DNA of 38,030 nucleotides from NCBI RefSeq assembly GCF_003334315.1, contig NZ_QOWR01000046.1; one strand, 5' to 3'. The notes beneath the pieces are model-generated. The model did no database searches, was not told the DNA's origin, and saw only the letters and a program-made list of their open reading frames with translations. The stretch is from Escherichia coli (GTDB lineage Bacteria; Pseudomonadota; Gammaproteobacteria; Enterobacterales; Enterobacteriaceae). The stretch's first letter is position 1. The number at the start of each line of letters is the position of its first letter. The position numbers and the translations under genes were made by a program. This document shows positions 17,678 through 23,269 of the stretch, piece by piece.

Positions 17678-18880
17678 ATGTTAAAAGTGGAAATGTTATC
17701 CACCGGGGATGAAGTGTTACACGGGCAAATCGTTGACACTAACGCTGCCTGGCTGGCCGATTTTTTCTTTCATCAGGGGTTGCCATTATCTCGCCGCAAT
17801 ACGGTGGGGGATAACCTTGATGACTTAGTCACCATTCTTCGCGAACGTAGTCAGCACGCCGATGTGCTGATCGTTAACGGCGGGCTGGGACCGACCAGCG
17901 ATGATTTAAGCGCACTCGCCGCTGCGACAGCAAAAGGTGAAGGCCTGGTGCTGCATGAAGCCTGGCTCAAAGAGATGGAACGCTATTTCCACGAACGTGG
18001 ACGAGTAATGGCACCGAGCAACCGTAAACAAGCGGAGCTGCCTGCCAGTGCTGAATTTATCAATAACCCGGTAGGCACCGCCTGTGGTTTTGCCGTGCAG
18101 CTTAATCGTTGCCTGATGTTCTTTACTCCCGGCGTACCGTCAGAATTTAAGGTGATGGTCGAGTACGAAATCCTGCCGCGCCTGCGCGAGCGTTTTTCTT
18201 TACCGCAGCCGCCGGTTTGTCTGCGTTTGACTACTTTTGGTCGTTCGGAAAGCGATCTGGCACAAAGCCTGGACACTCTACAACTGCCGCCGGGCGTAAC
18301 AATGGGCTATCGCTCCTCAATGCCTATCATCGAACTGAAACTCACCGGACCGGCAAGCGAGCAACAGGCGATGGAAAAACTGTGGCTGGATGTTAAACGT
18401 GTTGCCGGACAGAGCGTGATTTTCGAAGGCACTGAAGGACTGCCCGCGCAGATCAGTCGCGAATTGCAAAACCGCCAGTTCAGCCTGACGTTGAGCGAGC
18501 AATTCACCGGTGGTTTATTGGCTTTGCAACTTTCTCGCGCAGGTGCTCCATTGCTGGCGTGTGAAGTGGTTCCTTCACAGGAGGAAACCCTGGCGCAAAC
18601 TGCGCACTGGATTACAGAACGGCGGGCCAACCATTTTGCCGGGCTGGCACTGGCTGTTTCGGGTTTCGAGAACGAGCATCTCAACTTTGCGCTAGCCACG
18701 CCAGACGGCACTTTCGCTCTGCGTGTGCGTTTCAGCACTACGCGCTACAGCCTGGCTATCCGTCAGGAAGTGTGCGCAATGATGGCACTGAATATGCTGC
18801 GCCGTTGGTTAAACGGCCAGGATATCGCCAGTGAGCATGGCTGGATTGAGGTTGTTGAGTCCATGACCTTATCTGTCTGA
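17678..18880 (+). CDS. yfaY: CinA-like protein YfaY (competence/damage-inducible protein A family, molybdopterin-binding-like domain)
   Basis: 400-aa ORF, recognised CinA N-terminal domain sequence. Confidence 0.88.
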   Translation: MLKVEMLSTGDEVLHGQIVDTNAAWLADFFFHQGLPLSRRNTVGDNLDDLVTILRERSQHADVLIVNGGLGPTSDDLSALAAATAKGEGLVLHEAWLKEMERYFHERGRVMAPSNRKQAELPASAEFINNPVGTACGFAVQLNRCLMFFTPGVPSEFKVMVEYEILPRLRERFSLPQPPVCLRLTTFGRSESDLAQSLDTLQLPPGVTMGYRSSMPIIELKLTGPASEQQAMEKLWLDVKRVAGQSVIFEGTEGLPAQISRELQNRQFSLTLSEQFTGGLLALQLSRAGAPLLACEVVPSQEETLAQTAHWITERRANHFAGLALAVSGFENEHLNFALATPDGTFALRVRFSTTRYSLAIRQEVCAMMALNMLRRWLNGQDIASEHGWIEVVESMTLSV

Positions 18881-19099
18881 TTCCGCCACTCTGTGCCGGT
18901 TTACTGCACCGGCACATTCCCCCTCCGGCAAAATTTGTCCAACCTGTTGTACTCAATAAGAAAAAATCCGTGCGCTGATTCACAAATTTGTGCGTAATTT
19001 CTCCAGTCTGCTGGACGAGGAGCGGGATTTGATGCGCTTCACAATTTTACTCCCCCTGAGCAACGAGACTGATTCCAGTATCTAAGACTGGAGTCCAGT

Positions 19100-19882
19100 A
19101 TGTTGGAATCAAGCAAAGTTCCCGCCCTGACACGGGCTATTGATATTCTCAATTTGATTGCCCGCATTGGCCCCTGTAGTGCTGCGACGATCATTGACAC
19201 ATTGGGAATCCCTAAAAGCACGGCCTATTTGCTGCTTAATGAACTCAGGCGTCAGCGTTTTCTTAGCCTTGATCACCAGGAAAATTTTTGTTTGTGGACC
19301 AGGCTGGTGGAGCTTTCCGGTCATGCGTTAAGCAAGATGGATCTCCGGGAACTGGCTCGACCGCGTTTGACGCAACTGATGGATACCACCGGGCTGTTAT
19401 GTCACCTGGGGATTATTGATAACGGCAGCGCTTATTACATTTTGAAAGTGGAGTCATCAGCCACTATCAGCGTGCGTTCCCATGAAGGAAAAAGCCTTTC
19501 GCTTTATCGCTCCGGAATAGGTAAATGCCTGCTTGCCTGGCAACCTGCAGCGGTACAGCAAAGTATTATCGAAGGGCTGGTCTGGGAGCAGGCGACACCC
19601 ACAACGATTACTCATCCACAGCAACTTCACGAAGAACTGGCGCGTATTCGCCGTCAGGGCTGGAGCTATGACAACGGCGAAGATTACGCCGATGTCCGTT
19701 GTGTCGCTGCGCCGGTGTTTAACGCCAATAACGAGCTTACCGCTGCGATCTCGGTGGTCGGTACCCGCTTACAAATCAATGAAGAATACCGTGATTATCT
19801 GGCGGGCAAGGCCATTGCCTGCGCCAGGGATATTTCACGTCTGTTGGGATGGAAAAGTCCCTTTGACTTACAAGCCTCATAA
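19100..19882 (+). CDS. rhmR: IclR-family transcriptional regulator of the L-rhamnonate operon
   Basis: 260-aa ORF with N-terminal HTH ([12 protein letters not shown]) and C-terminal IclR effector domain. Confidence 0.88.
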
Positions 19883-19896
19883 CAATGGAGAACATC

Positions 19897-21102
19897 ATGA
19901 CCCTACCAAAAATTAAACAGGTTCGCGCCTGGTTTACTGGCGGTGCGACAGCAGAAAAAGGCGCTGGCGGCGGTGATTATCACGACCAGGGGGCGAATCA
20001 CTGGATAGACGATCATATTGCCACCCCGATGAGTAAATACCGCGATTACGAGCAGTCACGCCAGTCATTTGGCATTAACGTTCTTGGCACGTTGGTTGTT
20101 GAAGTCGAAGCAGAAAACGGCCAGACCGGATTCGCCGTTTCGACAGCCGGTGAAATGGGCTGTTTTATTGTCGAAAAACATCTTAACCGTTTCATTGAGG
20201 GTAAATGTGTCAGTGATATCAAACTGATCCACGATCAAATGCTCAGTGCCACCCTGTATTACTCCGGCTCTGGTGGCCTGGTGATGAATACGATTTCCTG
20301 TGTCGATCTGGCTCTGTGGGATCTGTTCGGCAAAGTGGTCGGGCTTCCGGTTTATAAACTTTTAGGCGGCGCTGTTCGTGATGAGATTCAGTTCTACGCC
20401 ACAGGTGCGCGTCCGGATCTGGCAAAAGAGATGGGCTTTATCGGTGGCAAAATGCCGACGCACTGGGGGCCACATGATGGCGATGCGGGGATCCGCAAAG
20501 ATGCCGCTATGGTCGCGGATATGCGTGAAAAATGCGGTGAGGATTTCTGGTTAATGCTCGACTGCTGGATGAGTCAGGACGTGAACTATGCGACCAAACT
20601 GGCCCACGCTTGCGCGCCCTATAACCTGAAATGGATCGAAGAGTGCCTGCCGCCACAGCAGTATGAAAGTTATCGCGAACTGAAACGCAACGCGCCAGTC
20701 GGAATGATGGTCACCAGCGGTGAGCACCACGGCACACTGCAATCTTTTCGTACGCTTTCAGAAACCGGTATCGACATTATGCAGCCGGATGTTGGCTGGT
20801 GCGGTGGTTTAACCACGCTGGTGGAAATTGCCGCAATCGCCAAATCCAGGGGGCAACTGGTGGTGCCGCACGGTTCGTCTGTTTACTCTCACCATGCGGT
20901 GATCACCTTCACCAATACGCCATTCAGCGAATTCCTGATGACCAGCCCGGATTGTTCAACGATGCGTCCGCAGTTTGACCCGATTCTGCTCAATGAGCCG
21001 GTTCCGGTGAATGGTCGTATTCATAAATCAGTGCTTGATAAACCCGGTTTTGGCGTCGAACTCAATCGTGACTGCAATTTGAAACGCCCCTACAGCCACT
21101 AA
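19897..21102 (+). CDS. rhmD: L-rhamnonate dehydratase (enolase superfamily)
   Basis: Start at ATG 19897 (MTLPKIKQ...) with GGAGA Shine-Dalgarno 5 nt upstream; track ORF begins at 19885 (MENIM...) without an SD. Confidence 0.9.
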
Positions 21103-21158
21103 TCACTCCGGGCGTTGCTGTGACAACGGTAACGCCCACATATTCTAAGGAGCTTTTT

Positions 21159-22448
21159 ATGAGCACCGCTTTGCTTGACGCCGTGGTGAAGAAAAACCGT
21201 GTGCGTTTAATTCCGTTTATGTTGGCGCTGTATGTGCTGGCGTTTCTCGACCGTTCGAATATCGGTTTTGCCAAACAGACCTACCAGATTGATACCGGGT
21301 TGAGTAATGAAGCTTATGCGCTGGGAGCAGGCATTTTCTTTGTGGTATATGCGTTTCTGGGTGTTCCGGCGAATCTTTTGATGCGCAAACTGGGGGCCAG
21401 AACCTGGATTGGTACGACAACACTGCTGTGGGGATTTCTTTCGGCAGCCATGGCATGGGCCGATACTGAAGCGAAATTTCTGATAGTTCGCACTCTGCTT
21501 GGTGCTGCGGAGGCCGGATTTTTCCCTGGTATGATTTATCTCACCTCGCAATGGTTTCCGCAGCGTAATCGCGCCAGCATTATGGGGCTGTTCTATATGG
21601 GCGCACCGCTGGCGTTAACACTGGGATCACCGCTTTCCGGCGCGCTGTTGGAGATGCATGGATTTATGGGGCATCCCGGCTGGTTCTGGATGTTTGTGAT
21701 TGAAGGATTGTTGGCAGTCGGTGCTGGGGTATTCACATTCTTTTGGCTTGATGACACACCGGAGCAGGCACGTTTTCTGAGTAAACAAGAAAAAACGTTG
21801 CTTATCAATCAACTGGCAAGTGAAGAACAACAGAAAGTGACTTCTCGGCTGAGCGATGCGCTGCGTAATGGCCGAGTCTGGCAACTAGCGATTATCTACC
21901 TGACCATTCAGGTGGCGGTTTACGGATTAATTTTCTTCCTGCCGACCCAGGTTGCGGCATTGCTGGGAACAAAAGTGGGCTTTACAGCGTCGGTGGTCAC
22001 CGCCATTCCGTGGGTTGCGGCCTTGTTTGGGACCTGGCTTATTCCGCGCTATTCCGATAAAACCGGCGAACGGCGTAATGTCGCAGCGCTGACATTACTG
22101 GCGGCGGGCATTGGTATTGGTCTGTCCGGGCTGCTTTCTCCAGTAATGGCGATCGTAGCGCTGTGTGTTGCAGCTATCGGGTTTATTGCCGTGCAGCCAG
22201 TGTTCTGGACGATGCCGACACAACTGCTTTCCGGTACGGCGCTGGCTGCGGGAATTGGTTTTGTAAACCTGTTTGGTGCAGTGGGCGGGTTTATTGCCCC
22301 GATCCTGCGCGTGAAAGCAGAAACGTTATTTGCCAGCGATGCGGCGGGATTACTGACGCTGGCAGCGGTGGCGGTCATCGGTTCGCTGATTATTTTCACT
22401 CTGCGTGTAAATCGCACTGTTGCGCAGACCGACGTGGCACATCATTAA
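21159..22448 (+). CDS. rhmT: MFS transporter, inner membrane L-rhamnonate transporter
   Basis: 429 aa from ATG 21159 preceded by TAAGGAG; 12-TM-like hydrophobic profile. Confidence 0.9.
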
Positions 22449-22465
22449 ATAGGTTAAGGAACACG

Positions 22466-23269
22466 ATGAACGCATTATTAAGCAATCCCTTTAAAGAACG
22501 TTTACGCAAGGGCGAAGTGCAAATTGGTCTGTGGTTAAGCTCAACGACTGCCTATATGGCAGAAATTGCCGCCACTTCTGGTTATGACTGGTTGCTGATT
22601 GACGGGGAGCACGCGCCAAACACCATTCAGGATCTTTATCATCAGCTACAGGCGGTAGCGCCCTATGCCAGCCAACCCGTGATCCGTCCGGTGGAAGGCA
22701 GTCAACCGCTGATTAAACAAGTCCTGGATATTGGCGCGCAAACTCTACTGATCCCGATGGTCGATACTGCCGAACAGGCACGTCAGGTGGTGTCTGCCAC
22801 GCGCTATCCTCCCTACGGTGAGCGTGGTGTCGGGGCCAGTGTGGCACGGGCTGCGCGCTGGGGACGCATTGAGAATTACATGGCGCAAGTTAACGATTCG
22901 CTTTGTCTGTTGGTGCAGGTGGAAAGTAAAACGGCACTGGATAACCTGGACGAAATCCTCGACGTCGAAGGGATTGATGGCGTGTTTATTGGACCTGCGG
23001 ATCTTTCTGCGTCGTTGGGCTACCCGGATAACGCCGGGCACCCGGAAGTGCAGCGAATTATTGAAACCAGTATTCGGCGGATCCGTGCTGCGGGTAAAGC
23101 GGCTGGTTTTCTGGCTGTGGCTCCTGATATGGCGCAGCAATGTCTGGCGTGGGGAGCGAACTTTGTCGCTGTTGGCGTTGACACGATGCTCTACAGCGAT
23201 GCCCTGGATCAACGACTGGCGATGTTTAAATCAGGCAAAAATGGGCCACGCATAAAAGGTAGTTATTGA
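22466..23269 (+). CDS. rhmA: 2-keto-3-deoxy-L-rhamnonate aldolase (HpcH/HpaI aldolase family)
   Basis: 267 aa from ATG 22466 preceded by TAAGGAACACG. Confidence 0.9.

Follow-up and report, generated by a model that had tools for sequence, protein, structure and literature searches.

The rhmR gene of Escherichia coli (also named yfaX) encodes an IclR-family regulator of 260 amino acids and heads the L-rhamnonate operon rhmRDTA. In the window considered here, a stretch of 38,030 nucleotides from contig NZ_QOWR01000046.1 (assembly GCF_003334315.1), the gene lies on the plus strand at 19100-19882, as defined by its open reading frame (ORF), its annotation and Pfam, and short repeats lie upstream of and across its start codon. 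These repeats probably constitute the core of the rhmRDTA operator, which would be bound by the IclR-type repressor RhmR at a CRP-dependent promoter. They belong to four boxes whose conservation, geometry, clustering and gene context are directly apparent, the two boxes nearest the start codon being conserved with the regulator across the taxa of 45 loci while the surrounding non-coding DNA diverges. The site would thus be an IclR-type operator of the ordinary kind, deeply conserved and, for RhmR, apparently not yet mapped.

Conserved boxes across the rhmR start

The 45 rhmR loci compared have regulator identities of 56-100% (Enterobacterales, Tolumonas, Vibrio and metagenomes). Thirty-eight are orthologous loci obtained by scanning one genome per species, from Escherichia, Citrobacter, Klebsiella, Raoultella, Kluyvera, Trabulsiella, Kosakonia, Phytobacter, Mixta, Atlantibacter, Cedecea, Pantoea, Prodigiosinella and others, and seven more were reached through protein homologues (Tolumonas auensis, Vibrio mangrovi, Sodalis and four metagenomic contigs; regulator identity 56-75%, or 56-72% for Tolumonas, V. 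mangrovi and four metagenomic or other loci). The upstream regions of the 38 loci align without gaps and present sharply bounded conserved blocks within divergent DNA. Conservation, measured as mean top-base frequency over 35 sequences from about a dozen genera, reaches 0.92-0.97 for Box A, the left half of Box D and Box C against 0.59 for the rest of the intergenic region.

Box C, GTCCAGT-AT-GTTGGAA (19093-19108; no strand is assigned to any of the boxes), is the best conserved element of the four, a 7-2-7 palindrome centred on the rhmR ATG and one mismatch away from the pattern GTCCARYNNRYTGGAC. Across 37 contexts its matrix reads G36 T37 C37 C36 A37 R36 Y37 A36 T37 n W36 T37 G37 G37 A37 A37. 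Its cores TCCA and TGGA lie 10 bp apart, the single helical turn expected of IclR-family operators, which are (pseudo)palindromes some 15-18 bp long; Boxes A and B share its 7-2-7 geometry. Box D, TTCCAGT-AT-CTAAGAC (19073-19088), lies exactly 20 bp upstream of Box C in 45/45 loci. Its left half and central AT are strongly conserved and its right half is conserved only as rGAy, the matrix for 37 distinct contexts being T37 T37 C36 C35 A37 R34 Y36 A35 T33 ... G37 A37. The left halves of Boxes D and C co-vary as a direct repeat (G/G versus A/A at position 6), and both the left half of Box D and Box C, with their 20-bp spacing, are kept in all seven distant loci.

The two upstream boxes are each likewise a 7-2-7 palindrome with one mismatch to GTCCARYNNRYTGGAC. 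Box B, CTCCAGT-CT-GCTGGAC (19001-19016), sits between two CRP-like sites and, where present, always 92 bp upstream of Box C. Its halves are conserved at 0.80 and its variable centre at 0.68, and outside the Enterobacterales it is found in Tolumonas (TTCCAGTCCTTTGGAA), Vibrio (CTCCAACACTCTGGAA) and the locus L046. Box A, GTCCAAC-CT-GTTGTAC (18937-18952, or an 8-2-8 palindrome if read as 18936-18953), has a mean conservation of 0.92 and stands at -163 to -165 from the ATG in 38/38 enterobacterial loci. It is confined to the Enterobacterales, being absent in the Tolumonas, Vibrio and metagenomic loci, and becomes a perfect GTACA..TGTAC palindrome in Prodigiosinella, Cedecea, Pantoea and Sodalis. 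Box A is a putative distal auxiliary box, and RhmR as its binder is uncertain because TGTAC is invariant in its right half. A FadR-type or GntR-type site at Box A was rejected, the partial likeness to such a consensus being out of register with the conserved block 18937-18953.

The half-site consensus is (G/T)TCCARY for Boxes D and C and about GTCCARY for Boxes A, B and C, giving (G/T)TCCARY-AT-RYTGGAA as the consensus derived for the full box. With at most one mismatch, GTCCARYNNRYTGGAC has three matches in the 38-kb window (Boxes A, B and C), which either span the rhmR ATG or lie no more than 172 bp upstream of it; as these same boxes had supplied the pattern, the scan of the window is on its own circular. 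When the 38 loci, of about 5.7 kb each, were scanned with up to two mismatches, 101/101 matches fell at -163 to -165, -99 or -7 from the ATG, with no match in the remaining ~210 kb of these loci.

Box C overlaps the beginning of the coding sequence, where the third positions of codons 2-4, which lie inside it, are invariant against 0.43-0.89 in codons 5-14. It also persists where the start codon has moved. In Vibrio (L040, 2991-3006) and in L046 (2446-2461) the ATG has become ATT, the start being the next codon, TTG, and Box C is retained, while the ATG is displaced downstream by 3 nt, with Box C in place, in Cedecea, Pantoea, Sodalis, L041 and L045. Because Box C survives these moves of the start codon and fixes synonymous sites, what is constrained is the DNA itself, rather than the initiator codon or the peptide. 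The gene caller placed the L046 start 48 nt too far downstream and chose ATA as the start in L047.

The first-pass annotation of this DNA had drawn attention to a palindrome, CCAGT-N7-ACTGG, and to a direct repeat of TCCAGTA ending in the rhmR ATG, which it took for a possible autoregulatory operator or a start-occluding mRNA structure. Both repeats are present as described: CCAGT (19075-19079) and ACTGG (19087-19091) enclose atctaag, and the copies of TCCAGTA lie at 19074-19080 and 19094-19100, the second running into the ATG. Read directly from the window sequence, TCCAGT (19074-19079), ACTGGA (19087-19092) and TCCAGT (19094-19099) are followed by the ATG (19100-19102), giving the inverted repeat arms of 6 nt (TCCAGT/ACTGGA), longer than the 5 nt first noted. 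A repeat finder adds a second, everted palindrome (ACTGGA-g-TCCAGT, 19087-19099), an extended form of the direct repeat (GAkTCCAGTAT), an 8-bp inverted repeat of TGATTCCA (19070-19077) with TGGAATCA (19104-19111), and the 14-mer TCCAGTCTGCTGGA (19002-19015), a second copy matching TCCAGTATGTTGGA (19094-19107). Taken on the E. coli sequence alone, these repeats are no more than chance could give. Perfect 5-N7-5 inverted repeats number 44 in the window (1.2 per kb), an 8-nt direct repeat within 30 nt is seen 37 times, and one hexamer occurs four times on either strand within 100 bp at about seven places. The significance of the repeats comes from conservation, as the statistics for E. coli only are at or near chance.

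Conservation also redraws the units. The direct repeat first noted, TCCAGTA(T), corresponds to the left halves and central AT of Boxes D and C, while the palindrome first noted is composite, its left arm being the left half of Box D and its right arm, ACTGGAG (19087-19093, plus strand), combining the GAC that ends Box D (19086-19088) with the Shine-Dalgarno (SD) sequence GGAG (19090-19093), which lies 6 nt ahead of the rhmR ATG. In orthologues the right arm varies as ATTGGAG, ACCGGAG, ACAGGAG, ATATGAG, ATATTAG or AAAGAGG with no compensating change in the left arm, and the comparison thus marks CCAGT-N7-ACTGG as a by-product, not a functional unit. The conserved units are instead the TCCARYAT direct repeat, with copies 20 bp apart, and the previously unnoticed palindrome GTCCAGT-AT-GTTGGAA centred on the ATG. 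The proposed autoregulatory IclR-type operator fares well in that footprinting across the orthologues supports an operator over the ribosome-binding site (RBS) and start codon, and less well in that the palindrome named for it is not the conserved unit.

The gene context is equally stable. In E. coli RefSeq genomes the gene is annotated as yfaX (IclR family), with yfaY upstream (ORF 17678-18880) and rhmD downstream (ORF 19885-21102). The gene rhmR is the first of rhmR-rhmD-rhmT-rhmA, and 2 nt separate its stop codon from the rhmD ATG. The order IclR regulator, MR_MLE dehydratase and MFS transporter is found in all seven distant loci, with an HpcH aldolase gene next in the four that extend that far. 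The 2-nt gap and the conserved gene order together indicate that the site would therefore control the whole rhmRDTA operon, rhmR included. The coding sequence of rhmR starts inside Box C, so that the regulator gene adjoins the site. RhmR and its orthologues carry the Pfam domains HTH_IclR (PF09339) and IclR_C (PF01614), with a predicted recognition helix, PKS(T/S)xY(L/I)(L/I)LxE, that is conserved throughout. Among deposited structures there is none of RhmR itself, the closest being distant IclR-family proteins (1mkm, KdgR and BlcR; E = 1e-29 and weaker).

Promoter context and a model of repression

Two sites resembling the CRP consensus TGTGA-N6-TCACA, neither assigned a strand, flank Box B. 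Site 1, cGTGc-N6-TCACA (18969-18984, centre 18976.5), matches 8/10 consensus positions, with half-sites conserved at 0.87, and site 2, TTTGA-N6-TCACA (19028-19043, centre 19035.5), matches 9/10, with half-sites at 0.96. A conserved A-tract, AAAAAATC, stands just upstream of site 1 (18961-18968 and 18929-18936), and the right half of the same site is overlapped in E. coli by a 12-bp palindrome, CACAAATTTGTG (18981-18992), which is not conserved outside Escherichia. The gene yfaX, and likewise its paralogue yjhI, was listed among new predicted CRP targets by genomic SELEX (systematic evolution of ligands by exponential enrichment), which places in vitro CRP binding upstream of yfaX, though not at base resolution (PMC3105977).

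The candidate -10 hexamer of E. coli, GAGACT (19065-19070, plus strand), is weak and was placed with the help of hexamers at or near the same position relative to Box D in the orthologues. Other enterics have CACACT or AACACT at this position, AATAAT stands at or within a few nucleotides of it in Tolumonas, Vibrio and L046, and L041 has TATACT within a promoter-like TTGCAA-17-TATACT. In several orthologues the AATAAT or TATACT lies 2-3 nt ahead of Box D, and in L045 a TTGACA-17-TAAATT ends 9 nt before it. In E. coli, Tolumonas and Vibrio alike, 21 nt separate the TCACA of the proximal CRP-like site from the -10 position. These orthologue hexamers therefore suggest a transcription start near 19077, inside Box D. 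Only with that start, itself derived in this way, does site 2 come to lie at -41.5, the class II position; site 1 would then be at about -100.5, while Box D would span roughly -4 to +12 and Box C roughly +17 to +32.

From the adjacency of site and gene we infer RhmR as the binder; where transcription starts, that RhmR represses, that it forms a tetramer and what its effector is are likewise parts of a model. One RhmR dimer would occupy each of Boxes D and C, two helical turns apart on the same helix face, and the two would probably join into a dimer of dimers, the tetrameric state of other IclR-family proteins. The boxes would begin 2 nt after the putative -10 and cover the start (~19077) and the whole 23-nt leader to about +32, and bound RhmR would block RNA polymerase at a promoter dependent on the class II CRP site (19028-19043). 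In the Enterobacterales Boxes B and A would be auxiliary, probably giving stronger repression through cooperative binding or looping. RhmR would come off when it meets an effector, which would be L-rhamnonate or the 2-keto-3-deoxy-L-rhamnonate formed from it by dehydration. Since rhmR is first in the operon, the regulator would also control itself, which agrees with the autoregulation first suggested; the predicted site is nevertheless the operator of a whole catabolic operon and not only an autoregulatory element.

Several points weigh against this model. A binding site, footprint, promoter or start site for RhmR was not found in the searchable literature, and the identity of the binding protein is taken from adjacency alone. 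The right half of Box D is poor in E. coli, and Box A departs from the core at a single position (TGTAC in place of TGGAC) and could be the site of a different factor. Inverted half-sites, if transcribed, also pair as RNA, and the outer stem that they form shows a slight excess of double-sided changes. CRP-like matches of this stringency occur in the window at chance level (15 found, 15.7 expected), and the support for CRP therefore comes from conservation and the literature. The E. coli -10 (GAGACT) is weak and no sigma-70 promoter passes a consensus scan in E. coli, which is as expected because the promoter would be activator-dependent.

Published genome-wide data on the start and on other factors at this spacer were also consulted. 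The Cappable-seq and SMRT-Cappable-seq supplements contain no yfaX/rhmR entry, and the start-site table examined stops short of 2.36 Mb. A genomic SELEX peak of the RpoN holoenzyme at 2,360,468, published for the yfaY-yfaX spacer, maps to about 18865, at the 3' end of yfaY, when its placement is calibrated by the published LexA site. A sigma-54 promoter was set aside, inspection by eye having shown no correctly spaced TGGCAC-N5-TTGC-like sequence. LexA at the rhmR promoter was likewise set aside: the degenerate site ATATGATCGTCTATCCAGTG, proposed from ChIP-chip (chromatin immunoprecipitation on microarrays) data (PMC3542263), lies instead inside rhmD, at 19999-20018 on the minus strand.

In the searchable papers RhmR (YfaX) is called putative or predicted. 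The analysis offers a prediction testable at base resolution, consisting of a box consensus, four box positions, a likely class II CRP promoter and a transcription start. It would be of use for regulon annotation, for a biosensor of L-rhamnonate or 2-keto-3-deoxy-L-rhamnonate, and for making sense of how often E. coli lineages have lost the locus. As an operator it reveals no new kind of mechanism.

Alternative explanations

The element might instead act as RNA, an SD-burying hairpin limiting rhmR translation, for example by silencing read-through from yfaY or as a leader switch, but we consider this unlikely. Transcripts that include 19066-19099 would pair UGAUUCCAGU with ACUGGAGUC, and in other species it would often be the left half of Box D that pairs with the right half of Box C. 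RNA folding of the rhmR 5' region, which the first-pass annotation had proposed as a check, gives an answer that depends on the 5' end. The segment 19066-19125 folds at -18.2 kcal/mol (z = -3.45) into a 12-bp hairpin with the SD inside the stem, and for 5' ends from 19040 to 19066 the unpaired probability of the SD is 0.00-0.03. From the putative start at ~19077, by contrast, the 5' arm is untranscribed, the fold falls to -8.9 kcal/mol (z = -0.74) and the SD is about half open. Some orthologues fold well (z = -4.45 in Kosakonia, -4.61 in Tolumonas, -4.01 in L042 and -3.11 in Vibrio), but the preferred fold differs among species and some have none (z = -0.29 in L045, -0.80 in Cedecea and -0.82 in Pantoea).

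The outer stem, formed by the left half of Box D and the right half of Box C, has five pairs changed on both sides against 1.6 in shuffles, a value reached in 1/500 shuffles. However, any two inverted protein half-sites will pair as RNA, and co-evolution with the regulator would give the same signal in the outer stem; moreover, the direct-repeat halves of D left and C left co-vary too, which RNA pairing does not explain. For the hairpin first noted, pair counts in two alignments equal those of shuffled controls, and its varying positions mostly break pairs. The early suggestion of a start-occluding mRNA structure hinges on the transcript, as the SD is fully paired only for 5' ends at or upstream of ~19066, and the hairpin shows no covariation. 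Boxes A and B, with the same 7-2-7 geometry, lie well upstream of any leader, and Rfam gives no match at E <= 1 in 18700-19400.

The hairpin that follows yfaY (18892-18916) resembles a terminator and has no T-run, which makes read-through plausible and counts in favour of the RNA explanation; whether this terminator leaks bears on whether read-through transcripts reach the rhmR leader. It consists of a perfect 9-bp stem, TGTGCCGGT / ACCGGCACA, beginning 12 nt past the yfaY stop codon, and on its sequence may be a leaky terminator. Other genera have different GC-rich hairpins at the same position after yfaY. The 42-bp symmetric element 19070-19111 could conceivably work at two levels, as a DNA operator for RhmR, within a set of four boxes interleaved with two CRP dimers, and as an RNA hairpin, a combination to which we give little weight. 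Were it so, read-through RNA from yfaY would hide the RBS and only transcripts from the regulated promoter would be translated.

That the boxes are bound not by RhmR but by a different regulator, a nucleoid protein or the like, with RhmR acting elsewhere or not here, seems to us quite improbable. It is true that adjacency is the only ground for the assignment to RhmR, and that the core of Box A in some genera (GTACA..TGTAC) is unlike the TCCA..TGGA retained by Box C of those genomes, and the genomic SELEX peaks of the RpoN holoenzyme and CRP show that other proteins bind this spacer in vitro. On the other side, Boxes C and D travel with rhmR through the Enterobacterales, Aeromonadales, Vibrionales and unassigned metagenomic lineages, among upstream contexts that are otherwise unrelated, and the recognition helix is conserved in step with them. 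The spacing of 10 bp between the core centres of a 16-bp palindrome is suited to a winged-helix dimer, and the ~210 kb of flanking DNA contain no further box.

A chance arrangement without function, its conservation merely reflecting the RBS and N-terminal codons, fits the abundance of such repeats in E. coli alone (about one per kilobase, with comparable hexamer clusters at about seven places in the window) and is very improbable, as conservation reaches 27 nt upstream of the ATG (TTCCARYAT), past any RBS requirement, includes synonymous sites and outlasts relocation of the start codon, and the boxes recur at fixed distances in all loci.

Comparison with known systems and distribution of the locus

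The operator proposed for RhmR has precedents. Tetramers of the IclR family bind operators with multiple repeats, such as the 42-bp operator of TtgV, the paired inverted repeats of BlcR, and the palindrome plus direct repeat of PcaU and PobR. As in these systems, the rhmR region has a regulator with HTH_IclR and IclR_C domains and a site adjoining the regulated operon, and it presents several short repeats within ~36-42 bp (19070-19111), in the form of a palindrome plus a direct copy on the same face. It differs from them in its 7-2-7 candidate boxes with a conserved central AT, placed over the leader, RBS and start codon. The IclR box itself is TGGAAAT-N-ATTTCCA, and the core of the putative RhmR half-site, TTCCA/TGGAA, is built from the pentamers of the IclR and AllR boxes but in reversed order, TTCCA...TGGAA rather than TGGAA...TTCCA.

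A second parallel is CytR, which at deoP2, cdd and tsx is placed between tandem CRP sites. Box B (centre 19008.5) similarly lies between conserved CRP-like sites centred 59 bp apart, the proximal one at about -41.5 from the putative rhmR start. CytR, however, belongs to the LacI family and RhmR to the IclR family, and in contrast to anti-activation by CytR the main RhmR boxes are found downstream of the -10, a position in keeping with steric repression. Unlike the case of CytR, we know of no protein-protein contact between RhmR and CRP.

A further parallel is offered by XynR (YagI), YjhI and SL1344_3500, sugar-acid IclR repressors of transporter/dehydratase/aldolase operons in E. coli and Salmonella (PMC12445098, PMC5934670, PMC13279387). 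The rhm operon follows the same logic of transporter, dehydratase and aldolase with a local IclR-type regulator that would have a single nearby target. The helix-turn-helix of RhmR is not close to that of XynR, and rhmR heads its own operon in contrast to xynR, which is transcribed separately. For the xylonate systems a 2-keto-3-deoxy acid is reported as effector (PMC13279387), which suggests an analogous 2-keto-3-deoxy acid for RhmR; by this analogy its effector may be 2-keto-3-deoxy-L-rhamnonate rather than L-rhamnonate. The yagE promoter of MG1655 (L043, 3237-3255) carries a perfect 7-5-7 palindrome, TGTTCTATAATGTAGAACA, centred on TATAAT, which is a likely operator of the IclR-type repressor XynR and differs from the RhmR boxes in sequence and geometry. 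An operator motif transferable from a paralogue was thus not available, as the papers on XynR, YjhI and SL1344_3500 give no motif and the yagE palindrome differs.

In E. coli the 86-bp operator region is single-copy and chromosomal, which rules out a repeated or mobile element. It is present in 3979/5426 complete E. coli genomes, about 27% being without it. Among the proteins P0025, P0055 and P0065, Shigella entries have an N-terminally truncated RhmR of 215-217 amino acids without the HTH domain, and one entry from Escherichia marmotae has a product of 380 amino acids that joins the IclR domains to an enolase C-terminal-like domain. These truncated and fused sequences suggest decay of the locus or fusion in some lineages. 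In an O103:H2 strain a 3.86-kb deletion extends from the centre of Box A to inside rhmA (window 18945-22807; position 2845 of L044), with a CC microhomology at the junction, and has removed rhmR, rhmD, rhmT and the 5' part of rhmA.

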